Shown here in pieces: positions 23,156 through 42,716 of a stretch of DNA of 42,716 nt (positions are counted from its first letter, which is position 1; every line of letters begins with the position of its first letter). The stretch lies in the sequence record PZ386962.1, one strand, 5' to 3'. Made by a program: the position numbers and the translations under genes. The notes beneath the pieces were generated by a model. It made no database searches. It was not told where the DNA came from and saw only the letters and a program-made list of their open reading frames with translations. The stretch is from a phage.

Positions 23156-25588
23156 GTGGACTTACTTGCTGAGCAGATTCGACTTGAAGAAGAAGCACGA
23201 GCCAGACACCGCGAGGGCTGGCTGGACAATATCAAAGAAGCCATGGCTAGTGGCCGGGCCGGGTCGGTGCCGTTGCTCCAGCGTATGATGGTAGAGGCGT
23301 ATCCTCTTGTCGAAGCTGCGATGCAAGAAACCCTGAACGAAACGACCCGTGGGTACGGTGCGCAGTACCGGACGTACATGCGTGAGATTGGCACCAAGGC
23401 GTGTGCCTCTCTTGCACTGAGCATGGCGGTGTCCGGTGCTGCGTCGGAGCAGGCGGTGCTGAGTCTGCTTAAGAGTATGGGTAAAGCGCTGATGGCTGAG
23501 GTGGTGTATCTCCGGGCGAAGCAGACCGGGCCACAGCAGGCAGCGTACATGGAGCGCGTGAAGCAGGACGTTAAGAAGTCCCGGTCGAAGTCAGCCAACC
23601 ACGTCTACAACAAAGCGCGTGCGTCGGCGGCGAACGTTGGGGTCGAGATTGATGTGCTGCCGCAGCGTGCTCTGATTACCATTGGCAAGCTGATGATGAA
23701 ATGCGTGGAGCCAACTGGGTTGGTGGCTACGATTCGCGTCGGCGGCAACCAACGTCAGCGCGGTACGGCACACTTCGCACTGCATGAGGATGTGCTGGCT
23801 ACGATGAACGACTGGCTGGACATGCCGCGTGCTGATGGCATGTGCTGCCCACCGTTGATTATCCCACCGAAGCAGATTGCACCGAACGGTCGCAGCGGTA
23901 TGTGGCACTCGGATGGGCAGGCGGCGATGTACCGGGTAATGAGTCGCATGAACCACAAAGGGTATCGTGCATTGAACGTTGACCCGACCCCTGTTATAGA
24001 GCCGTGTATGATGCTCAGCAGCGTTCCGTACCGAATTAACCCAATGGTACTGGAGTTCCTGAGAACGAACCGTACAGGCGTTATGGGGCTGCCTGTGCCG
24101 CCTCGTGAGCCTAAGCTCCCATTCACCATCCCGGCTGGTGTCAGCTTCGCGCAGTACATCAGCAAGTTCCCACCAGAGATGCAGCAGCAGATGGATGCCG
24201 AGGCTCATGAGTACAAGGTTAAGACTCGCTTGTATTACAATGAGTTGCGTAAGTTCACGTCGCAGATGCTGGCGCTGAATGGTGCAGTCAAAGAGGCAGA
24301 GCGCTATGCGCATTATGACCGGGTATACCTCCCGACCTACGCTGATACACGGGGCCGAATTTATTATTCTTCGACCCTTAACCCTCAGTCCATCGACGCA
24401 GTGCGAGCGCTGCTCGAACTTGCTGAACCAGTGGCTCTCGGAAGTGAGGGGTTATTCTGGCTCAAGGTACATGTTGCGAATTGCTTCGGCTACGACGCGA
24501 CAGACTTCGAAGACCGGGCGGCGTGGACGGACAAGACACTCCCCCGACTACGTGAGGCGTGCCGTCTTCCAGAGGCATTTGATTCGTTCTGGTCAGAGGC
24601 CGATAGCCCTATCAGCGCGTGGGCTGCATCTGTTGAACTCATTCGCGCTATCGACTCAGGAAATCCTGCGGCTTATCCCTGCCGAGTGGTTACACAATGG
24701 GACGCTACCTGTTCAGGATTACAGCACCTCAGTGCGATGTTACGAGATGAGGTTGGAGGTGCTGCTGTCAATCTTATCGACAGCGTGGGAAGAAAAGCAG
24801 ACATATATCTCAAGACGGCAGCAGCGGCGATGCAGGCTCTTGAAGAAAGTGAGGCAGCAGCGCCGACGCAAATGGGTACGTGGCTTGTTAGCATCGGCAT
24901 CGTTCGGGCTATGGCCAAGAAGCCAGTGATGACCTACGTGTACGGGGCAACCCGGCATGGTATGGTTGATTACTACTGCCTGTATCTGCGTGAGAACCGG
25001 GTCAAGCTGCCGGACGGCAAGAGCCTGCTGGAGTGTGCGCAGTTCATCGCAGAGTTCATGTGGAACGCTATCCCTCGCGTTGTGCCGAAGGCGGCTGAGC
25101 TGATGGCATGGTTGCAGGCTATCGCAGTTGAGGCGGCAGCCAACGGCGAGTACGTGGAAATCATCGCACCGTCAGGGTTGCGGGTGGTTAACCTGTACCA
25201 AGCCAGTAAGGAGACGATGCTCAACAACATCAACCTCATGGGTATCCACAGCATTAAGCTGCGTGAGTATCTGGACAAGCCGGACAGCCGGAAGTGTGCT
25301 GCTGCGATTGCTCCGAATTTCGTACACGCTATGGATGCCAGCCACATGATGAAGGTGCTGTGGGAGATGTGGAACAACGGGGTGTACATGGTATCCATCC
25401 ATGACTCGTTCGGTGTTGCGGCGGCACATGCTGGTCTGCTGCATAAGGTCATTCGTGAAAAGTTCGTACAGATGTATGAGCAACATGACCCAATTCAACA
25501 GCTTGCGGTAAGATACAATGCTGTTCCACCTGAGCGGGGCAATCTGGACATCCAGCTTGTGAAACAATCAAGCAAGTTTTTCTGCTGA
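23156..25588 (+). CDS. single-subunit DNA-dependent RNA polymerase (T7 RNAP family)
   Basis: Motif A-like DATCSGLQHLSAML, motif B-like KKPVMTYVYGAT, motif C HDSFG; 810 aa; GTG start with AAGGAG RBS; sits directly upstream of the structural genes as in phiKMV-like phages. Confidence 0.9.
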   Translation: MDLLAEQIRLEEEARARHREGWLDNIKEAMASGRAGSVPLLQRMMVEAYPLVEAAMQETLNETTRGYGAQYRTYMREIGTKACASLALSMAVSGAASEQAVLSLLKSMGKALMAEVVYLRAKQTGPQQAAYMERVKQDVKKSRSKSANHVYNKARASAANVGVEIDVLPQRALITIGKLMMKCVEPTGLVATIRVGGNQRQRGTAHFALHEDVLATMNDWLDMPRADGMCCPPLIIPPKQIAPNGRSGMWHSDGQAAMYRVMSRMNHKGYRALNVDPTPVIEPCMMLSSVPYRINPMVLEFLRTNRTGVMGLPVPPREPKLPFTIPAGVSFAQYISKFPPEMQQQMDAEAHEYKVKTRLYYNELRKFTSQMLALNGAVKEAERYAHYDRVYLPTYADTRGRIYYSSTLNPQSIDAVRALLELAEPVALGSEGLFWLKVHVANCFGYDATDFEDRAAWTDKTLPRLREACRLPEAFDSFWSEADSPISAWAASVELIRAIDSGNPAAYPCRVVTQWDATCSGLQHLSAMLRDEVGGAAVNLIDSVGRKADIYLKTAAAAMQALEESEAAAPTQMGTWLVSIGIVRAMAKKPVMTYVYGATRHGMVDYYCLYLRENRVKLPDGKSLLECAQFIAEFMWNAIPRVVPKAAELMAWLQAIAVEAAANGEYVEIIAPSGLRVVNLYQASKETMLNNINLMGIHSIKLREYLDKPDSRKCAAAIAPNFVHAMDASHMMKVLWEMWNNGVYMVSIHDSFGVAAAHAGLLHKVIREKFVQMYEQHDPIQQLAVRYNAVPPERGNLDIQLVKQSSKFFC

Positions 25589-25905: not shown

Positions 25906-26325
25906 ATGAAAGTGTCTACTATGGGAAATACATCACACACGACAATGCCACTCGACATTCGCCGTGCTGTGGCCGAGGGCATCCAAGCCGAGCGGCCATG
26001 GTCAGACTTATCTCCCGATGTGATTGTTGACAGCATGTACGAGGCCACCGCCTCCGGTTGTGTTGACGTTTACATCACTGACGATGACAACAGCCTCATG
26101 GCCGTTGCACACATCGGCAGGTTATTCGATATTCATGTGGGCGAGATGGTGGTCGTTATGGCCTCATACGTCTGGCCCCCGTACAGAAACCGTGGAGTGA
26201 TGCGTGCCATCCTCCGTGTACTCAAAGACGTGGCCCGTTCAGAGGGTGTGCGTTGGTGCGGTTACTCCCATATGGTGCGGCCTTACGTTCAGGAGTACCG
26301 CTTCATTGATTTGGAGAAACCGTAA
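25906..26325 (+). CDS. hypothetical protein (weak GNAT-like motif)
   Basis: 139-aa ORF, GGGAGAG RBS; RNRGVMRAIL resembles acetyl-CoA binding motif of GNAT enzymes, weak. Confidence 0.5.
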   Translation: MKVSTMGNTSHTTMPLDIRRAVAEGIQAERPWSDLSPDVIVDSMYEATASGCVDVYITDDDNSLMAVAHIGRLFDIHVGEMVVVMASYVWPPYRNRGVMRAILRVLKDVARSEGVRWCGYSHMVRPYVQEYRFIDLEKP

Positions 26326-26585
26326 TGGGTAGCGTAGGCAAAGTATTCAAGGGCATTGGCTCGGTCTTCGGGCTGGGTAGCCAAAAGCCTCAGTACACTA
26401 TCAAGACTGACCCGGCGCAGGTGAAGGCAGAAACGATGCAGGCTAACCTTGCAGCCGACCTCGCTGGTGAGAACACCCCAACCATTCAGGCAGGTGGCCA
26501 AGTAAGCTCGGCCTCTGATACGCTGGGTGGTCGCCGCCGTCGCACCGGAACTGGTGTGGCAAGTAACCTCGGCATTGGGAGCTAA
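26325..26585 (+). CDS. hypothetical virion-associated small protein
   Basis: 86-aa Gly/Ser-rich ORF immediately upstream of portal, ATG overlaps previous stop. Confidence 0.5.
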   Translation: MGSVGKVFKGIGSVFGLGSQKPQYTIKTDPAQVKAETMQANLAADLAGENTPTIQAGGQVSSASDTLGGRRRRTGTGVASNLGIGS

Positions 26586-26587
26586 GC

Positions 26588-28153
26588 ATGACTCAAGACG
26601 CGCAGAACGTCAGCTATGAGTCTCTGTGGCAGAAGTACCGGGATAGCAACGTTGTCACCAAAGCGCGGGAATACAGCCGCTATACACTGGCCAAGCTGGT
26701 GAGCGAGTATGACCGCAGTGACGTGGACGACATGAACCGCCAGCAGATTACTCGTGATTACCAGTCTGTCGGCGCTCTGCTCGTCAACAACCTAGTTGCC
26801 AAACTGGGTGAGTTCCTGTTCCCGGCTTCCGCTCGATTCGTGAAGCTGAAATTAAACAAGGTGTCTGACCAACAGCGGCAGTCTATGTCGCAAGTTAATC
26901 AGGCGCTTATCACTATTGAAAAGGCCATCGTAGACAAAGCCAAAGAGAATGGCGGCTACGCTGACCTGCTCCAAGCAATTGCCCAACAAGCTGTGACCGG
27001 AAACGCCGCGCTGTACCGCGATATGGAAACTGGTTCGTACCGAGTGTACGGATTGGAATCCTTCGTGGTGCAGCGCGACGGTCGTGGCGTTGTGGTGGAT
27101 GCTATCGTGAAGGAGCGCATCCAGTGGGATTCTCTGCCCAAGGACTTTCAGAATGAACTGAACTCCAAAGGCTTCCGCTGCGGTGGGAACAAACGCGTAT
27201 GGCTGTACACTCGTGTGCTCCGCGTCCAGAAGGACAGTGGCACGTACGGCTATGAAATCACGCAGCAGATTGGTAACTACCAAGGTTGCGTCTATACCCC
27301 CGGTAAGGATTACTACCCTGAAAAAGTCTGCCCATGGTTATTCCCAGTGTGGTCTTTGAAGTCTGGCGAGCATTACGGTCGCGGGATTGTCGAAGACCAC
27401 GCTGGGGATTTCGCACGTCTGTCCATGCTGTCTGAGCACTCAGCTCTGTACATGCAGGAAGCGCTGCGCGTGCTGTGGATGCTCACTGGTTCTGGCGGCA
27501 ACGTCGATGACATTGAGAGCGCAGAGACTGGTCAGGTCATTCCACTCCAGAACGGCACATCGCTGTCCGGCTTGGAGGTCGGGGATTACCAGAAAGTTCA
27601 ACAGGCCCGTGACGAAATCAACCAGATTGTGCAGCGACTGGCGCAAGCCTTCATGTACACTGGCGAGTTCCGTGACTCCGAACGTACCACCGCCACCGAA
27701 GTGCAGCAGGTAGCAACCAGCGCCGAACGTGGGCTGGGTGGCCCGTACTCAATGCAGGCTAAGACCCTCCAGATTCCTCTGGCGTACGTCCTGCTCGCGG
27801 AGATTGACGAGTCCACCGTACCTGACATCGTAGGCAATATCCTGTCGCTTCAAGTTGAAGCTGGTCTGGATGCCCTCGGTCGCAGCATTGAAGCAGAGAC
27901 GCTGATTCGTGCGCTCTCTGACTCGCAGGCAGCAATGGTTGCTGTCCAAAATATTAATGGCGTTGCTAACACCATCGACCCACAGAAAGTCCTTGAGGTT
28001 ATCTTCGCATCCAACGGTGTTGCGCTTGACGACTATCGTAAGTCGGCACAAGACTTGGCCCAAGAAGGGCAGGCCATCGACAATGCAGCGCAGGCTGCCG
28101 CAGGCGTTCAGCCGGGCGCGGTCGATGTAGCGCCTAACATCGCACAGATTTAA
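26588..28153 (+). CDS. head-tail connector (portal) protein (T7 gp8-like)
   Basis: 521 aa; first large gene of the structural block, followed by scaffolding and capsid genes as in T7-like phages. Confidence 0.75.
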   Translation: MTQDAQNVSYESLWQKYRDSNVVTKAREYSRYTLAKLVSEYDRSDVDDMNRQQITRDYQSVGALLVNNLVAKLGEFLFPASARFVKLKLNKVSDQQRQSMSQVNQALITIEKAIVDKAKENGGYADLLQAIAQQAVTGNAALYRDMETGSYRVYGLESFVVQRDGRGVVVDAIVKERIQWDSLPKDFQNELNSKGFRCGGNKRVWLYTRVLRVQKDSGTYGYEITQQIGNYQGCVYTPGKDYYPEKVCPWLFPVWSLKSGEHYGRGIVEDHAGDFARLSMLSEHSALYMQEALRVLWMLTGSGGNVDDIESAETGQVIPLQNGTSLSGLEVGDYQKVQQARDEINQIVQRLAQAFMYTGEFRDSERTTATEVQQVATSAERGLGGPYSMQAKTLQIPLAYVLLAEIDESTVPDIVGNILSLQVEAGLDALGRSIEAETLIRALSDSQAAMVAVQNINGVANTIDPQKVLEVIFASNGVALDDYRKSAQDLAQEGQAIDNAAQAAAGVQPGAVDVAPNIAQI

Positions 28154-28163
28154 TGGAGAATAC

Positions 28164-29396
28164 ATGTTTGGTGAATCCCAACCTACTGCCGCACCCGCTC
28201 CCCAAAACGTACCCGCTGGCCCGACCTATGCTCCCTCTGGTCACAGCGGTAATGATTATGGTGGAAGCCCACAGGTGGTACAGAACCCAGCGTTAGGCCG
28301 TCTCGGTACGCCAATCGAGTTACCTCGTGGTGGTGCTACCCCGCAGCCTGCGCAGCCGTTCGGACAGCAGCCGGGCCTGATTCCTTATCAGGAGCAGAAT
28401 CCGTATGCACAGCCCCAACAGGGAAACCCAAGTCCTTACGCACCCGTACCTCAGCAGAACCCGTATGGTGCTCCGCAGCAGACCTCTCCGTTTGCGGCAC
28501 CACCAATTCCGGTTAATGGGTATCAGAATCCGGGCGCAACGCCTCCGGGCCAAGCGGCTCCGGCACAACAGTTCCAACAGCCAGTAGCTCCGCAGCCATA
28601 TGCTTTCGACCCGTATGGTCGTCAGCCGGGCGCACAGCCGCAGGCACAGCAGCCTCAACAGCAGCAGCCGCAGCCATTCCAACAGTTGCAGCAGCAGCCG
28701 GGCCAGCCTCCACAGCAGTTCCAGAATCCCAACCTCACGGCTGAGAAACTGGCTACTCAGGAAGGTGGCTTGACCTCCGAGCAGGTTGCTCAGATTTTCC
28801 CGGACGATACCAGTCGCGCCGTATTCCAAGGCATGGACACCATTGCCCGTGGCCAGAACATCGACCTGCTTGCAGCGTTCGGTTCGGCTTACGAGCGTCG
28901 TGACCCGTCTCTGGTGAACGACCGCTATCTGGCTCAGTTCGACCCACAGACTGTATCAATCCTCAAAGGTCAATTCGGCGCACTGGTTGCGGCTGGTCAG
29001 CAGCGTGACGCTGCAATCGAGCAGCAGGTTTATCAGATGGCTGGTGGCGAGGAGCGATGGGGTCTGGCTGTACAGGCATTCAACACCGCCGCCGACAAAG
29101 GCACGGTCGATGCCGTTGTAGCGGCTGTGAACTCCGGCGACCCTAATCAGGTGCGTCTGGCAGTGAACACCATTCTCCAGTTCGCTGGTTCCGCAGGGAA
29201 TATGATTCAGCGTTCTGGTCAAACTTTGACGCCTAATGGTGGCGGTCAAGCACCTCGTGAGGTTATGACCAACGAGGCATTCCGTCAGCATCTTGGCTGG
29301 CTTGAGCAGGCGCATCCTGTTGGTTCCCCGGAATACAACAAGCATTACGCCGTACTGGTAGAGCAGCGCCGTCAGGCTAAAGCTCAAGGTTACTAA
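28164..29396 (+). CDS. scaffolding protein with long Pro/Gln-rich low-complexity region
   Basis: Lies between portal and major capsid genes; GGAGA RBS; residues about 40-190 are P/Q-rich with NPY/DPYG repeats. Confidence 0.65.
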   Translation: MFGESQPTAAPAPQNVPAGPTYAPSGHSGNDYGGSPQVVQNPALGRLGTPIELPRGGATPQPAQPFGQQPGLIPYQEQNPYAQPQQGNPSPYAPVPQQNPYGAPQQTSPFAAPPIPVNGYQNPGATPPGQAAPAQQFQQPVAPQPYAFDPYGRQPGAQPQAQQPQQQQPQPFQQLQQQPGQPPQQFQNPNLTAEKLATQEGGLTSEQVAQIFPDDTSRAVFQGMDTIARGQNIDLLAAFGSAYERRDPSLVNDRYLAQFDPQTVSILKGQFGALVAAGQQRDAAIEQQVYQMAGGEERWGLAVQAFNTAADKGTVDAVVAAVNSGDPNQVRLAVNTILQFAGSAGNMIQRSGQTLTPNGGGQAPREVMTNEAFRQHLGWLEQAHPVGSPEYNKHYAVLVEQRRQAKAQGY

Positions 29397-29416
29397 TTTC
29401 TTCGTAAGGATTTTCC

Positions 29417-30409
29417 ATGGCTGATAACACCTATACCCCAAATCAGTTCCGTCCACACTGGGGTGGCGCGAACTCTGATAACGACATCCACCTTGAGGTG
29501 TATGACCGTGATGTTCAAACCCAGTTCATCTACAACTCCATCTTCCGTTCCGGTCTGACCAACTTCAAGTCTGTGGCTAACCAGTCCAACACTTGGCGTG
29601 GCGACCGTCTCGGCTCTGTGACTGTTAAGGGTCGTCGCTCTGGCGAGGCGCTGGACAACCAGCCAGTTCGCTCTGAGAAACTGATTGTCACTGTGGATAC
29701 CGTGTCTTACATCCGTATCCCGATTGACTATCAGGACGACTGGACTGCGCCGGACTTCCGCGCTGAGCTGACCCGTAACATGGGTACTGCACAGGCGAAG
29801 GCGTTCGACCAAGCGCACGTCATCCAGCTCCAGAAGTCTGCTGACTTCGTGCCTCCGGCTTCTCTGGCTGGTGCGTTCAACGCAGGTATCAAGGAGCAGG
29901 TCACTCTGACTGGCACCGTGGCATCTGAGGAAGATGATGCGTCTGCGCTGGTACACGGCCACAAGAAAGCTATCGAGGCGTTCATTCGCCGCGATGCTGA
30001 CCTTGGCCGACTGGTTACGCTGATTGACCCGGCGTGGTTCAGCATTCTGCTGGAGCACAAGAAACTGATGAACGTTGAGTTCACTGGTGGTCGTGGTGTC
30101 AACGACTTCGCAATGCGTCGTGTTGCGTATGTCAACGGTATCCGTATCATCGAGAGCAACGCGTTCCCGCAGGCGGCAATCACCGACCACATCCTCGGCC
30201 CTGACTTCAACGTCACCGCCGACGAGATTCAGCGCAAGATGATTATCTTCGACCCGTCTCTGGCTCTGGTCACTGTCGAAGCCCAGCCGCTGTTCAACCG
30301 CGTATGGGATGACGAACGTGAACTGACCAACGTTCTGGATAGCTTCCACATGTACACCGTGGGTCAGCGTCGTCCAGACGTGGTTGCTGTAGTTACCACT
30401 GAGTCCTAA
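29417..30409 (+). CDS. major capsid protein (T7 gp10-like)
   Basis: 330 aa; lies after scaffolding gene; AAGGA RBS; followed by hairpin terminator as for T7 gene 10. Confidence 0.8.
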   Translation: MADNTYTPNQFRPHWGGANSDNDIHLEVYDRDVQTQFIYNSIFRSGLTNFKSVANQSNTWRGDRLGSVTVKGRRSGEALDNQPVRSEKLIVTVDTVSYIRIPIDYQDDWTAPDFRAELTRNMGTAQAKAFDQAHVIQLQKSADFVPPASLAGAFNAGIKEQVTLTGTVASEEDDASALVHGHKKAIEAFIRRDADLGRLVTLIDPAWFSILLEHKKLMNVEFTGGRGVNDFAMRRVAYVNGIRIIESNAFPQAAITDHILGPDFNVTADEIQRKMIIFDPSLALVTVEAQPLFNRVWDDERELTNVLDSFHMYTVGQRRPDVVAVVTTES

Positions 30410-39800: not shown

Positions 39801-40006
39801 TCGGTGCGCCGGGCCTGTTGTTCCTCGACCGTGCCTACGGCGTGGCAGGTGCAGCTACCAATGCTGCTGGCGGTGTGTTGACTGGGGATGCTGACCAAGC
39901 CATCTCCGGTGCTCGCAAGGCGGCGGGTAACGTCATCCAAGCAATCCCACTCATCTCCATTGTGCCGGGCGTCCGAGCACTCAACGAAGCAGTTAAGGGT
40001 GAATAA
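36896..40006 (+). CDS. internal virion (core / ejectosome) protein C (gp16-like)
   Basis: 1036 aa, last large gene before tail fiber, ATG overlaps upstream stop. Confidence 0.65.
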   Translation: MIITQESLDKFMAPKQGANAPSLVIPAPVKTADLSTPLQDATRQGAVEQFDKMQELEATPMATALSASVKNWDTTQLFDAAFNKPTFQADPDFKPNEALQNVQFPVGADDRTFLFKSKSMDEFNWRTQQLQEMRERTQLAHTAPVMNAVLQFADPLYLATDLLSMGAGTALKLGRLGTAAVGAASTATLMNTIGSEARPVSQNEIIFAAALHGAATTAFYRPAAAPARRLDELSPEEFAAEMQRRNGIDPNNPPQFDPNNAMSPLAMSLGVGPRGATVVDEVPESIRAAAQRGLDLARRGEQTNPKRPFLEWSLFKSFSQHSEESSALAGRLLDDPLNPNMTSAAAIQRETQARFGVLLNQYEDTLRHALTTDGWSNIRRFRDPVGYRRAQQEFEAAVRLELDKRMIDNNFRGANPSVAAAADRLGEYSRAVGRELERKGMVEPGFVEKNPYYYPRRMNVTKVEQAEQLLGKKPFMKQMTTAVQRGIGTDRPTANVIAHAMVERARRKGYGIDNSGTIINKEGRDELLEIIENSKGLDEAAKARASALLRESGSDAGRPSMLKSRINIDMMHQLGPNLQVRDLFDDSITSMMDSYNRRITGRLALHEAGLGTDAERAAAREALAKSIKDGTARRQALGQYDNIMAYYQGAPVGEEMPQFMRQLSALTQATGLAASGLWQLVEYGTMMQRFGAVNTFRAMMRTIPEARALFKQMRVSTKEGRQLALDAEEALTAAVASDIRMRPIMQHYEDMFSADKSPWVMRLEHARDATMFINMQKYIHFHQTRTNAALVMQTLRKAAEGDAKAIAAMKTYGANEQLLNDIRKQVGQHGTKPDAWDEGVFNRSRIVMMNAMDDAIVRARVGELPAFAEFSTLGKFLFTFRRFVAATHNKTLVGTWNREGARGMATLMAYQYPLAMMATAANNVISGKAFSDPETMAPNKLAGQALNYLGAIGFASEFTGVLTGQQRSFGAPGLLFLDRAYGVAGAATNAAGGVLTGDADQAISGARKAAGNVIQAIPLISIVPGVRALNEAVKGE

Positions 40007-42378
40007 TGGCGAACAGCTATAATACTTACGTGGCGAACGGTTCACAGACCGCATTCCTCGTCACGTTCGAGCAGCGCGTGTTCACTGAGATTCAGGTGTA
40101 CCTCAACTCCGAACTCCAGACGAGCGGATACACCTACAACTCTGTGACCAAACAGATTGTCTTTGACACCGCCCCGCCAATCGGGGTGATTGTCCGACTC
40201 CAACGCTACACCTCCGATATTCTGCTTAACAAGTTCGGTCAGGACGCTGCCTTCACGGGCAGCAACCTCGACGAGAACTTCGAGCAGATTCTGTTTAAGG
40301 CTGAGGAAACTCAGGAGGCATGGCTCGCGCCGCTTGACCGCGCAGTCCGTGTCCCGAACTCCGAAGTCTCCATCAACGCATTACCGAACGTCGCTGGCCG
40401 CCGTAACAAGGCATTGGGCTTTGACAACGCTGGCCAGCCGTTCATGATTCCTCTGGTTGATATTCCTGACTCAGCTCTGGCCATTGCGCTGGCGATGAAT
40501 GACGGCGGTAAGTGGATTGGCACCCTTGGCGGTGGTACGTTCCTCGACCGTCAGGACACTGTGTGTCTGTCAGAGTTCACCAACAACACTGGCTATGCGT
40601 CCATCGCTGCCGCTGTGCAGGCATGTTTCGACTATGCCAAGGCAAACGGTAAGGTTGTGGATGCACGCGGCTGGGAAGGCACTGTGGACTCCACGGTGAC
40701 AATGGATGGTATTGAGGTCGTCGGCGGTACGTGGCACGGTAAGGCAGATATTCGACTGATTGACTCAACGTTCCGCAACTTCAAGGCATCCACTGTGCGT
40801 GTGGCATACTGGGGTGGCAAGGTTCGCATTGCTGACTATGAGTTCACCAGTGCGCCGAGCAACTCCAAAGTTACGTCAATCCTGTTCCAAGGCAACATCG
40901 CCGGGGGCAGCTACGTAATCGAGAACGGTATCCACCGTAACGGCAAGTTCGGTATTCTGCAACAGGGTACTGGTGAGGCTATCACCAACGGCATTATCCG
41001 CAACGTCGCTATGATGGACATGATGGGTGATGGCATTGAGATGAACGTAATCAACAAGCACTATGACGGTGGCCTGCTGATTGAGAACATCTACCTTGAG
41101 AATATCGACGGCACCAACGCACCTATTCCACTGTCCAACTGGGGCATCGGTATCGGTATTGCAGGTCAAGGCCCGTTTGGTTGGGATGCTGCTGAGACTC
41201 AGTACGCGAAGAACGTAACCGTGCGTAACGTCCATGCTCCGCGCGGTGTACGTCAGGTTGTCCACTTCGAAGTTACCCGCGACAGCGTGTGCGAGAACGT
41301 GGTCTGTAACCCTGACCTGTCCGTGTCCACTGGTACTGGCCTGTCTGCTGCTGGCGTAATCACGTACGGCTGCAAACGCATGACCATTGATGGCGTGGTT
41401 GGTGAGCCTATCAACACAGGTGCAACCTCCCCTAACGATATTCGTCTCGTTATGCTGGAGTGGGGTGCTAACCAAGCAGGTGCTGGCGGTACGCCGGGTG
41501 CTGCGTGTCCATCTTTTGACATGACCGTGCGCAACGTGCAGACCCGCACCGGGCGCTTCTATGCAGGTGTCGGCTCCGACGACGATAACACCAACACGTA
41601 CCACCTTGAAAACATTCACTGTTACAAGATGACGCTGTTCGGTGTGGCTACTCTGCTGAACATGACCAACGTTACTGGTGTCGTATTCGACGCAGTTGGT
41701 GATGACTCCAGCGGCGGTACTTCATCCAACGGTGTGTACCCGCGTAAGAAGACGTGCCTGAACATGGTGAACGTGAACTTCTACGGGCCGGGTATGACCG
41801 AGGGTGCGCTGTACAGTAAGGCTCGCTACTCTGACATTAGCACGCTGAACTCCAACGTGCGTGCCATCCCTTACTCTAACATCCAAGGTAACGTTGGCGC
41901 TATCCTGTCTCCAGTGAACCGCATCCTGACGCTGCCAAACAACTTGGCAACGCTGACAGGTGCTGAGTTCCCGACTGGTAAAGAGTTCCCGGAAGGTACT
42001 GTCCTGCTGAAAACTGATGGTTCTGGTGGTAACTTCATCGTCACCCAGTTTGGTGCCTACATCCCTAATGATGGCAACAACTTTAAGGTGCGTGCTGCTG
42101 CTGCTGGCCAGACGTATCTGGAGCAGAACCTGACTCCGGCTGGTACTCAGGCATCCACCTCGTGGCTGTACCATAAACCAATCTCTGCTGGCACCCGGTT
42201 GAACATCCCCGGCGCTGGGCCGAGTGGCGGTACACTGACCGTGACGGTGGTGCGTGCTCCTTATCAGGTGGACAACAACATCGGGAACCCGGTACGCATC
42301 GACATCACCCCGGCCATTGTGACGGCTATCCCTGCTGGGACTCAGCTCGCCGCAACTTATCCGGTGGCTTACATCTAA
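40006..42378 (+). CDS. tail fiber / tailspike protein with probable beta-helix enzymatic domain
   Basis: N-terminal segment resembles the T7 gp17-type tail attachment domain in pattern and placement (MANSYNTYVANGSQTAFLVTFEQ...); central region has repeated NVxVRNV-like strands typical of right-handed parallel beta-helix depolymerases. Confidence 0.7.
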   Translation: MANSYNTYVANGSQTAFLVTFEQRVFTEIQVYLNSELQTSGYTYNSVTKQIVFDTAPPIGVIVRLQRYTSDILLNKFGQDAAFTGSNLDENFEQILFKAEETQEAWLAPLDRAVRVPNSEVSINALPNVAGRRNKALGFDNAGQPFMIPLVDIPDSALAIALAMNDGGKWIGTLGGGTFLDRQDTVCLSEFTNNTGYASIAAAVQACFDYAKANGKVVDARGWEGTVDSTVTMDGIEVVGGTWHGKADIRLIDSTFRNFKASTVRVAYWGGKVRIADYEFTSAPSNSKVTSILFQGNIAGGSYVIENGIHRNGKFGILQQGTGEAITNGIIRNVAMMDMMGDGIEMNVINKHYDGGLLIENIYLENIDGTNAPIPLSNWGIGIGIAGQGPFGWDAAETQYAKNVTVRNVHAPRGVRQVVHFEVTRDSVCENVVCNPDLSVSTGTGLSAAGVITYGCKRMTIDGVVGEPINTGATSPNDIRLVMLEWGANQAGAGGTPGAACPSFDMTVRNVQTRTGRFYAGVGSDDDNTNTYHLENIHCYKMTLFGVATLLNMTNVTGVVFDAVGDDSSGGTSSNGVYPRKKTCLNMVNVNFYGPGMTEGALYSKARYSDISTLNSNVRAIPYSNIQGNVGAILSPVNRILTLPNNLATLTGAEFPTGKEFPEGTVLLKTDGSGGNFIVTQFGAYIPNDGNNFKVRAAAAGQTYLEQNLTPAGTQASTSWLYHKPISAGTRLNIPGAGPSGGTLTVTVVRAPYQVDNNIGNPVRIDITPAIVTAIPAGTQLAATYPVAYI

Positions 42379-42387
42379 GGAGAAACC

Positions 42388-42693
42388 ATGGCATCCGTGA
42401 ACAAGCAGCTCGACGGGCTGCACCGGATGCTGGTGGAGTATCTGTCCGACCGCTTGGCTGACGCTCGTAGGAAAGATGAACATGGTAACATCATCGAACC
42501 TATGGCGGCGGCTGAGCTGTCCGTACTTCGCCAGTTCCTGAAAGACAACGGTATTCAGGCTGATAAAGACCACGCAGATGACCTGCTGGCGCTGCAAGAG
42601 CAACTGAATAACGAAAAGACCGAGGCAGGTCGTAAGGATATTATGACCGCTGCCATTAACTCAATCGCAGAAGATAGCGGGATGATGCACTAA
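42388..42693 (+). CDS. terminase small subunit (T7 gp18-like)
   Basis: 101-aa helical protein directly upstream of terL when the window is read circularly; AAGGAGA RBS. Confidence 0.6.
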   Translation: MASVNKQLDGLHRMLVEYLSDRLADARRKDEHGNIIEPMAAAELSVLRQFLKDNGIQADKDHADDLLALQEQLNNEKTEAGRKDIMTAAINSIAEDSGMMH

Positions 42694-42716
42694 TGGATTT
42701 ACAACGCCGCATGGTG

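Follow-up and report, generated by a model that had tools for sequence, protein, structure and literature searches.

A probable scaffold gene flanked by portal and capsid genes

The window analyzed here, PZ386962.1 at its full length of 42,716 nucleotides, is a complete Bonnellvirus genome with 99% DNA identity to Escherichia phage altidsur. Bonnellvirus is a genus of coliphages, phiKMV-like podophages of enterobacteria. A phage RNA polymerase gene (23156-25588) is followed by genes for the portal, the scaffold, the major capsid protein, tail tubes A and B, and internal virion proteins. The open reading frame (ORF) at 28164..29396 occupies the slot of a phiKMV-type scaffold, with the portal gene before it and the major capsid gene after it, in an Autographivirales genome that encodes its own RNA polymerase:

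26588..28153, + strand: portal (head-tail connector) gene, directly upstream of the scaffold gene (PF12236, E = 4e-49; phrog_449, E = 2e-138)
28155..28158, + strand: Shine-Dalgarno sequence GGAG, read from the sequence, 5 nt before the ATG at 28164
28164..29396, + strand: head scaffolding protein coding sequence, 410 amino acids plus stop (phrog_36307, residues 1-410, E = 2e-214)
29417..30409, + strand: major capsid protein gene, directly downstream of the scaffold gene (phrog_267, E = 6e-80; weak PF21703 match)

The 410-amino-acid product matched phrog_36307 ("head scaffolding protein") over its full length and shared 99.8% amino acid identity with altidsur QHR65315.1, annotated "scaffolding protein." The phrog_1018 profile matched the whole protein with an E value of 8e-14 and the C-terminal half alone with an E value of 3.5e-24. 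By BLASTP, residues 148-322 of phiKMV gp31 were 29% identical to the helical domain described below (E = 4e-16); BLAST and tblastn similarity to the scaffolds of the phiKMV group spanned residues 228-410 only. These matches agree with the first-pass annotation, made from the letters of the window, which had called the gene a scaffold. The scaffold role in this family is read from gene position and from a weak similarity to T7 gp9. We conclude that ORF 28164..29396 probably encodes a phiKMV-type procapsid scaffold, as gene position and family match suggest.

The gene is already annotated as a scaffold in near-identical GenBank genomes and goes unmentioned in published Bonnellvirus papers. Several Bonnellvirus records label the orthologue "hypothetical protein" or begin it at an internal Met (RZ4). 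We considered two internal starts and rejected both: the Met annotated in RZ4 (residue about 135), a candidate start for a short isoform, is present in ROV85, RZ4, and Kc261 only, and Met224 lacks a Shine-Dalgarno sequence at a workable distance.

A Pro/Gln-rich tail with almost no charge precedes a helical domain

We divided the protein into a tail of three segments and a helical domain (percentages of invariant columns are for 14 Bonnellvirus orthologues):

28164..28343, + strand: tail segment 1 (residues 1-60), G/S/P/A-rich; 85% invariant columns, dN/dS 0.08-0.33
28275-28325, + strand: invariant motif VVQNPALGRLGTPIELP (residues 38-54), within tail segment 1
28344..28565, + strand: tail segment 2 (residues 61-134), P/Q-rich; 68% invariant columns, dN/dS 0.2-0.47, pLDDT 30-40
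28566..28733, + strand: tail segment 3 (residues 135-190), a variable Q/P tract that carries every in-frame indel; invariant columns, 32%, with 13 gap columns
28734..29393, + strand: helical scaffold domain (residues 191-410), with AlphaFold2 helices at residues 205-345 and 370-407; dN/dS 0.05-0.09

Positions 28284-28734, corresponding to residues 41-191, had been singled out in the first-pass annotation as a Pro/Gln-rich region of roughly 150 residues, and both peptides quoted there are present. Within residues 41-190, Q accounts for 26%, P for 25%, A for 11%, and G for 9%, and charged residues are scarce (3 acidic, 3 basic); the background in the phage proteome is 4.4% P and 5.0% Q. The richest 150-residue stretch of the scaffold is 51% P+Q, against 18% for the runner-up among the other ORFs of the window. 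Over residues 1-200, Q makes up 22%, N makes up 5%, and the charged fraction is 0.04.

AlphaFold2 assigned pLDDT values of <50 to residues 1-38 and 48-202, with a short helix at residues 42-47, and values of 70-88 to the helical half; both sets of values come from one 18-sequence alignment, and low pLDDT serves as a proxy for disorder. Thus, the N-terminal half is probably disordered, as first proposed. The Pro/Gln tract itself was placed correctly, but the low-complexity part predicted to be disordered extends further than first described, from residue 1 to about residue 202 (nucleotides 28164 to about 28769). The protein ends in a basic helix, EQRRQAKAQGY. Foldseek searches of BFVD returned fold matches to Autographivirales scaffolds only, and the PDB gave no Foldseek match at an E value of <1 and no sequence match for either the family profile or T7 gp9. 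We conclude that tail residues 1 to about 200 are nearly uncharged, Pro/Gln-rich, and predicted to be disordered and that residues about 203-410 constitute the helical domain conserved among phiKMV-type scaffolds, a plan in which a predicted all-helical C-terminal domain follows a Pro-rich low-complexity tail.

Conserved motifs and regularly spaced aromatic residues in the tail

In frame +1, the tail has a dN/dS of 0.1-0.35, the mark of purifying selection. Residues V39, N41, P42, A43, L44, G45, and P54 were invariant in 18 sequences with identity down to 50%; NPALG and NPY hold throughout this set. In some distant family tails the counterpart of NPALG is NPMLS, and NPMLS-like motifs occurred in 15 of 140 such tails (1.6 expected). 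Two further motifs, GFxVPP and PG[FWYM]V, are likewise strongly over-represented there. Synonymous divergence is also reduced at the 5′ end of the gene, where the junction at 28104-28250 is 91 to 98% identical between species, so nucleotide- or mRNA-level constraint could account for part of the conservation of residues 1-30. We rejected a Pro/Gln-specific cause for the low dS in residues 1-60; conservation of gene 5′ ends and junctions is general and is also found at the start of the capsid gene.

In segment 2, P-Y/F motifs recur about 10 residues apart (NPYAQP, SPYAPVP, QNPYGAP, SPFAAPP, and NGYQNP), accompanied by PPGQAAP. Segment 3 retains a PYAFDPYG/NPAYxFNPYG motif at residues 144-152. 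The first 190 residues hold 16 aromatic residues, and the number per tail is steady at 13 to 17 across orthologues; positions 81, 92, 101, 110, 120, 146, 148, and 151 are aromatic in 89 to 100% of them. We conclude that the conserved short linear motifs of the tail are NPALG...LP near the N terminus and about 8 core aromatic residues, mostly in P-Y/F.

The first-pass annotation had described these motifs as NPY/DPYG repeats. P-[Y/F] dipeptides are indeed in excess (9 seen, 3.7 expected; P = 0.003), and aromatic spacing is fairly even, at about 10 residues (gap coefficient of variation, 0.52 for residues 61-190 and 0.85 in shuffles; P of about 0.025), which is modest support. True repeats were not found: NPY occurs twice and DPYG once in the tail, and self-alignment gave no significant internal duplication of the protein (best score, 76; shuffled, 67 ± 9; P = 0.18). 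Slippage-prone DNA repeats, a suspected source of length variation, did not materialize either. Tandem Repeats Finder reported a single 15-nt × 2.3 array in the tail DNA, the direct repeats in the region are short and weak, and length variation is limited to in-frame changes of 1 to 3 codons within residues 135-190. The GenBank records of forsur and usur mark a repeat_region of about 50 nt within segment 3.

The tail belongs to a family of Pro-rich scaffold tails

Bonnellvirus scaffolds (altidsur QHR65315.1, J8-65 AIM40535.1, Lidtsur QBZ71544.1, and others) are 75 to 99.8% identical in amino acid sequence over their full length. They share the tail, its motifs, and the gene position and differ by indels of 1 to 3 codons and by two allelic types of residues about 135-160. 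Segment 3 has a mosaic identity profile. Pantoea phage LIMEzero gp39 and metagenomic relatives P0007 to P0018 are 50 to 70% identical and have P/Q-rich tails of 155 to 190 amino acids carrying NPALG, NPY, SPF/YAAPP, PPGQAAP, and NPAYQFNPYG, as in the Bonnellvirus scaffold. These tails are richer still in Gln (up to 37%) and nearly without charge; LIMEzero gp39 lacks the first approximately 30 residues.

A survey of the wider family, with the helical C-terminal domain as the query against a representative library, yielded 169 relatives. The tails of 159 representative relatives have a median length of 75 amino acids and are 20% P, so a Pro-rich, low-charge tail is general among phiKMV-type scaffolds, and the initial impression that the tail is unusual for its kind was mistaken. 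phiKMV gp31 itself combines a homologous helical domain and the same gene slot with a Pro-rich, low-charge N terminus rich in P, A, Q, and V. The putative scaffold of Ar-KM, a phiKMV-like phage, is gp36, which likewise gave low-confidence AlphaFold models; mass spectrometry detected it, but it was not seen in cryo-electron microscopy maps (bioRxiv 10.64898/2026.05.18.726046).

Three features set the Bonnellvirus/LIMEzero clade apart. Tail length is 155 to 191 amino acids, against 25 to 131 elsewhere in the family; phiKMV-type tails favor P/A/V over P/Q; and their aromatic content has a median of 1.9%, against 8% here, with P-Y/F depleted rather than enriched. We conclude that phiKMV-type scaffolds had a Pro-rich tail ancestrally. 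The NPALG/NPMLS motif, common to shorter distant tails, points to expansion of this ancestral tail in the Bonnellvirus/LIMEzero clade, by about 2.5-fold and with enrichment in Gln and Tyr/Phe.

We conclude that the Pro/Gln-rich region genuinely belongs to the Bonnellvirus scaffold, as a conserved and probably disordered N-terminal tail. It is largely ordinary, since such tails are normal for the family and the J8-65 orthologue already appears in a published table of proteins with prion-like domains (Tetz & Tetz 2017, PMC5694896). What is distinctive is the length of the tail, its near absence of charge, its 13 to 17 conserved aromatic residues, and its invariant NPALG. The over-represented motifs NPxLS, GFxVPP, and PG[FWYM]V, with the Bonnellvirus/LIMEzero clade as an extreme, highly conserved, aromatic-rich expansion, give a comparative picture that may help researchers of capsid assembly.

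Possible functions of the tail

The reading that we favor, and consider reasonably probable, is that the protein is a procapsid scaffold in which the helical domain is joined to a disordered tail. Within the assembling procapsid, this tail would be a flexible arm that makes multivalent, sequence-specific contacts. The helical domain and basic C-terminal helix would do the classical scaffold job of self-association and coat binding. NPALG would probably dock on a conserved partner from the phage itself: the portal, the inner surface of the coat, or internal core proteins. The evenly spaced aromatic "stickers" may let tails cohere weakly with one another or with the coat and so concentrate subunits. 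At DNA packaging, the tail, being unfolded and unprocessed, would ease exit of the scaffold through capsid pores. Judging from composition and motifs, multivalent tethering or condensation by the tail, as first suggested, is plausible.

The tail could instead be a prion-like, "sticker-and-spacer" domain that undergoes homotypic phase separation, its condensates concentrating coat, and perhaps portal and core, to nucleate procapsids. Composition speaks for this: the tails of the clade are P/Q/G/N-rich with a charged fraction of 0.005 to 0.05, and their aromatic residues, conserved in number, are spread fairly evenly through a polar, uncharged, predicted-disordered sequence, although the statistics are modest. 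PLAAC log-likelihood ratios (LLR) are 32.4 for the J8-65 orthologue (84% identity), 40.1 for a LIMEzero protein that is probably the scaffold, and 33 to 37 for several Acinetobacter podophage scaffolds (Tetz & Tetz 2017, Suppl. Table 1, PMC5694896). However, Pro at 22 to 25% would disfavor amyloid or prion conversion, and most family tails are short and aromatic-poor yet presumably build capsids. Moreover, beyond composition, conservation peaks in specific motifs (NPALG...LP, SPFAAPP, and PPGQAAP), a pattern more in keeping with heterotypic docking. We regard homotypic phase separation as fairly unlikely.

We also considered a passive entropic spacer or filler, acting by excluded volume, host-protein exclusion, or capsid exit with no sequence-specific contacts. 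Segment 3 resembles a drifting spacer in its variable sequence and length, so part of the tail may lack a sequence-specific role; family tails elsewhere are diverse in both respects, and the T7 tail is chemically different, being acidic. In contrast, residues 1-134 are conserved like many folded domains (68 to 85% invariant; dN/dS, 0.1-0.4), invariant motifs persist down to 50% overall identity, and very distant tails share short motifs far above shuffle expectation. For the tail as a whole, a purely passive role seems quite improbable to us.

A broader reading would have the expanded tail, by the conserved number and spacing of its Tyr/Phe residues in an uncharged P/Q matrix, drive scaffold condensation. 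In this podophage clade, procapsids would then nucleate through a condensate that recruits coat and portal by NPALG-type motifs, with the tails of each lineage tuning an unrecognized assembly step of Autographivirales. We offer this as a long shot; if it is true, the acidic tails of T7, the P/A tails of phiKMV, and the P/Q/Y tails here would be tunings of one general disordered-tail step. As phages of E. coli K-12, altidsur, J8-65, and the phage analyzed here offer a cheap, concrete genetic handle on the function of disordered scaffold regions.

Origin and reading frame of the tail

The first-pass annotation had raised the possibility that a scaffold domain is fused to another module, which would come from a host or another phage protein. 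A GenBank note on J8-65 likens only the "C-terminal half" to LIMEzero gp39, and the similarity to the phiKMV group found by BLAST and tblastn is, as noted above, C-terminal. However, LIMEzero-type proteins align along the tail and carry its motifs, all family members have some N-terminal tail (with an NPxLS motif in some), and the tail alone matched only the scaffold's own PHROG. Pfam returned no match to the Bonnellvirus scaffold, whole or in either half, at E values up to 10; Pro and Gln codon usage in the tail is that of the rest of the genome; and a blastn search of 5,426 E. coli genomes gave no match for a host origin. NPALG/NPMLS, shared with distant tails, likewise speaks against a foreign module, which we consider very unlikely.

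It is scarcely credible that the tail is an artefact, whether of a frameshift, of a sequencing error, or of a gene overlapping it in another frame or strand: an antisense ORF (28320..28829, 169 amino acids) and ORFs of 57 to 60 amino acids in the other + frames do overlap it, but 14 of 14 independently sequenced genomes keep frame +1 open from the first residue, with all indels multiples of 3 and dN/dS far below 1. Across the 14 orthologues, frame +1 alone stays open throughout, each other frame having 2 to 15 stops. We therefore rejected an overlapping or antisense gene; the antisense open stretch differs in length between genomes, its Leu/Arg-rich product is the expected mirror of CAG/CCG codons, and the genes of Bonnellvirus phages all lie on one strand (PMC8402661).

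Comparison with other scaffolds and low-complexity proteins

T7 gp9 occupies the same slot between portal and capsid genes and has the same plan of a low-complexity N-terminal tail and a helical domain. The view that T7-type scaffolds are compact does not hold for T7 gp9, in which the Pfam domain covers residues 123-305 and residues 1-122 form an acidic low-complexity tail outside it. The Bonnellvirus scaffold lacks the strongly acidic composition of T7 gp9 (pI, 5.14 against 4.31; D+E, 6.8% against 21.8%). Pfam, PF05396 included, matched neither the Bonnellvirus scaffold nor any of 103 family relatives, whereas T7 gp9 itself matched PF05396 with an E value of 7e-76. Local similarity lies around FQxM..IA and AGGxER[W/F]: phrog_1052 (T7 gp9) gave a weak match over 57 residues (E = 7e-5), and hhalign aligned the FQxM and AGGxERW/F motifs with probabilities of only 15% and 4%, so homology between the scaffold and T7 gp9 is not established. 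Foldseek gave a weak match to the phi15 "capsid assembly protein" (E = 0.013). Scaffolds of Autographivirales appear to share a plan of disordered tail plus helical domain.

P22 gp8 is a general functional model for the Bonnellvirus scaffold. Its coat binding maps to an element at the C terminus, portal binding and self-association map to other regions, and sizeable stretches stay flexible or disordered within the procapsid (PMC12005531; bioRxiv 10.1101/539965). P22 gp8 differs in being largely helical, with no P/Q-rich tail, and we detected no sequence or fold similarity between the two proteins.

For the tail, a looser parallel lies outside phages. The alpha-carboxysome protein CsoS2 and FUS-type low-complexity domains are disordered polypeptides whose recurring short motifs or regularly placed aromatic residues mediate weak multivalent binding during shell assembly or condensation. 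They are unrelated to the scaffold in sequence and system, and by analogy they may provide a working model for how its tail acts.

Genomic setting of the scaffold gene

The window is a complete phiKMV-like podophage genome (42.7 kb, 55.7% GC, genes on the + strand) that encodes a terminase, a DNA polymerase, and an RNA polymerase in the late position, followed in order by the portal, scaffold, major capsid protein, tail tubes A and B, three internal virion proteins, a colanidase-type tailspike, and the small terminase. This whole genome is permuted, opening with the ATG for the large terminase (1-1737) and closing with the small terminase gene (42388-42716). A BLAST comparison of the first and last 1.5 kb found no terminal direct repeat within the window. 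The relevant genes are as follows.

25906-26325, 139-aa protein just upstream of the portal gene; phrog_3986, in the position of phiKMV ORF28
26325-26585, 86-aa "virion structural protein" just upstream of the portal gene; phrog_35536, in the position of phiKMV ORF29
28164..29396, + strand, scaffold ORF of 410 aa, starting 5 nt past GGAG and 10 nt past the portal stop codon, and enclosing the flagged interval 28284-28734
40006-42378, tailspike, whose residues 4-104 form a T7-like N-terminal adaptor, joined to a colanic-acid-degradation domain (phrog_6117, E 1e-229)

The scaffold gene, usually annotated "scaffolding protein" in Bonnellvirus records, shares 99.3% DNA and 99.8% protein identity with that of Escherichia phage altidsur, and 77-95% DNA identity with those of 19 other Bonnellvirus records. 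Nucleotide identity between species peaks at 91-100% in 28104-28250 (the portal/scaffold junction and the first ~90 nt of scaffold) and in 29413-29590 (the capsid gene start), and dS in scaffold codons 1-60 is 2 to 5 times below that in codons 191-410; these may reflect conserved promoters, ribosome-binding sites, mRNA structure, or strong codon selection where highly expressed genes begin.

phiKMV ORF28 is labeled a GNAT N-acetyltransferase in RefSeq, and ORF29 is a "virion structural protein" directly upstream of the portal gene. The 86-aa protein might be a counterpart of gp34, the small ejectosome-assembly factor of the phiKMV-like phage Ar-KM. In make-up, the tailspike fits earlier mentions of colanidase tailspikes in bonnellviruses.

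Composition and predicted disorder of the N-terminal tail

The first-pass annotation described a Pro/Gln-rich region of ~150 residues in the scaffold. Gln and Pro do make up 26% and 25% of residues 41-190, which include six charged residues, and the peptides quoted are present in the ORF; the low-complexity tract is wider, however, running from residue 1 to ~200. The maximum P+Q content of any 150-residue window is 51% in scaffold and 18% in any other ORF of the genome (proteome background, 4.4% P and 5.0% Q). The motifs reported as "NPY/DPYG repeats" do occur (NPY twice, DPYG once), but "repeats" is too strong a word: DNA repeat finders gave no support for true repeats, and a protein self-alignment test supported no internal repeats (P=0.18). 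What is in excess is the P-[Y/F] dipeptide (9 versus 3.7 expected; P=0.003), and the aromatic residues of the tail are fairly evenly spaced, ~10 residues apart (P about 0.025).

The expectation of disorder was supported by AlphaFold2 run on an 18-sequence alignment, which gave pLDDT values below 50 at residues 1-38 and 48-202. Helices were predicted at residues 205-345 and 370-407 with pLDDT values of 70-88; since these came from the same alignment, it serves as an internal control for the low values in the tail.

Conservation and possible function of the tail

Conservation, measured as the percentage of invariant columns among 14 orthologues, divides the tail into three zones.

Residues 1-60, G/S/P-rich, containing VVQNPALGRLGTPIELP; 85% invariant
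Residues 61-134, P/Q-rich, containing NPYAQP, SPYAPVP, QNPYGAP, SPFAAPP, NGYQNP, and PPGQAAP; 68% invariant
Residues 135-190, Q/P tract with every indel and two allelic forms; 32% invariant

Pairwise dN/dS was 0.1-0.35 for the tail versus 0.05-0.09 for the C-terminal half. Pantoea phage LIMEzero and metagenomic relatives (50-70% identity) have a tail of 155-190 aa with the same motifs; eight core aromatic positions are 89-100% conserved and are also kept by these relatives. Across Bonnellvirus and LIMEzero-type relatives, aromatic residues number 13-17 per tail, and charged residues account for a fraction of 0.005-0.05. We conclude that scaffold has two parts and that purifying selection acts on the half predicted to be disordered, in which short motifs are conserved.

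The canonical scaffold functions would fall to the helical domain and the basic helix at the C-terminus, with the tail acting as a flexible multivalent arm whose regularly spaced aromatic residues could make weak cohesive contacts. Pure condensate-driven nucleation by the tail is a possible alternative. A passive spacer fits only residues 135-190. Within that zone, the allelic versions in Bonnellvirus at 28566-28640 (residues ~135-160) are FQQPVAPQPYAFDPYGRQP and PGLAPNNPAYGFNPYGQQP, and their similarity pattern across genomes departs from that of the rest of the gene; forsur and J8-65 have a nucleotide identity of 57-68% there and 86-98% just upstream. This suggests recombination breakpoints within the scaffold gene.

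The polyproline motifs APP (28494-28502, residues 111-113) and TPPG (28539-28550, residues 126-129) are kept in all 14 Bonnellvirus orthologues. APP and PPG are of the kind that stalls ribosomes without EF-P, and scaffold synthesis might depend on host EF-P.

The tail in the context of the phiKMV-type scaffold family

Homology to phiKMV gp31 (E 4e-16) lies in the C-terminal domain, which has 169 relatives among 1.84 billion cluster representatives. In the 159 with at least 20 residues before the helical domain, the tail has a median length of 75 aa and consists of 20% Pro, 10% Gln, 6% acidic, and 2% aromatic residues; in phiKMV gp31, the first ~140 residues are rich in P/A/Q/V. Members of this family thus normally carry a Pro-rich tail of low charge. 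Two very long proteins (P0082, 2861 aa; P0087, 1002 aa), each with 6-9 short stretches matching the helical domain (E about 1e-7), are probably repetitive and Ala/Gln-rich and not relatives.

Three short motifs were strongly over-represented relative to shuffles in the 140 distant tails from the representative library (P0019-P0165), which come from phiKMV-type scaffolds of many hosts: GFxVPP-like (36 tails; 3.0 expected), PG[FWYM]V (30; 0.7 expected), and NPMLS-like (15; 1.6 expected). These resemble conserved docking motifs; no earlier description of them turned up in the literature searched. The invariant NPALG of scaffold looks like a local version of NPMLS; because motifs of this class recur in scaffolds whose phages infect widely differing hosts, NPALG is probably a docking site for a phage partner that is itself conserved. 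The likeness also favors expansion of an ancestral tail over the addition of a foreign module. A search with the tail alone matched only scaffold's own PHROG, with no match in Pfam or in E. coli DNA. The proposed fusion with another module is thus essentially excluded.

The tail is genuine coding sequence

An origin in a frameshift or sequencing error is essentially excluded by the low dN/dS and by three further observations: frame +1 is open throughout in 14 of 14 independently sequenced orthologues (other frames have 2-15 stops each), orthologue lengths (406-411 aa) differ only by whole codons, and Pro and Gln codon usage is that of the rest of the genome.

An antisense ORF overlapping the tract (28320-28829, minus strand, 169 aa) is not a gene: its Leu/Arg content mirrors the CAG/CCG codons, the stretch that is open ranges from 91 to 143 aa across genomes, and all phage genes lie on the opposite strand.

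Annotation of the gene is inconsistent. The CDS of Cronobacter phage RZ4 (L008, 703-1536) is annotated from an internal Met near residue 135, and that of P0014 (a 305-aa JGI call) from a different one. In ROV85, Kc261, and RZ4 the product is labeled "hypothetical protein," yet all three have an uninterrupted frame of 409-411 codons.

Comparison with known scaffolds

The label "T7-type" fits the gene order and general plan, since T7 gp9 is encoded at the same place in the genome, but sequence does not establish it. The phrog_1052 (T7 gp9) match to the helical domain is weak and short (E 7e-5, 57 residues only), hhalign gave 4-15% probability with FQxM..IA and AGGxER[W/F] motifs aligned, and PF05396 matched neither scaffold nor 103 relatives; similarity to gp9 is thus marginal. 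Nor is T7 gp9 simply compact, acidic, and helical, as T7-type scaffolds had been described: the Pfam domain of gp9 spans just residues 123-305, and residues 1-122 are an acidic low-complexity tail. The proteins differ in charge (gp9, pI 4.3 and 22% D+E; scaffold, pI 5.1 and 7% D+E).

P22 scaffolds are partly disordered inside procapsids, with separate segments binding coat and portal (bioRxiv 10.1101/539965, PMC12005531). The putative Ar-KM scaffold, gp36, has low-confidence AlphaFold models and was seen by mass spectrometry in a purified preparation but could not be seen in the cryo-EM maps (2026 preprint, bioRxiv 10.64898/2026.05.18.726046). The Bonnellvirus papers examined in full text do not discuss scaffold. 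Several of these proteins already appear in a PLAAC survey of whole proteomes (Tetz & Tetz 2017, PMC5694896, Suppl. Table 1): "Scaffolding protein" A0A088F6K0 of J8-65, with an LLR of 32.4, a protein of LIMEzero that is probably its scaffold (LLR 40.1), and scaffolds from several Acinetobacter podophages (LLR 33-37).

The tail is thus a real, well-conserved feature of a known gene in a known phage genus, and scaffold offers an accessible model for probing what disordered scaffold tails do. In kind, the tail is typical of its family, and the published survey had already flagged it. Only in degree does it stand out, through its length, Gln and aromatic content, and conservation: outside the Bonnellvirus/LIMEzero clade, tails reach 131 aa at most, just 1 of 140 attains an aromatic content of 8%, and P-Y/F shows depletion, not enrichment.
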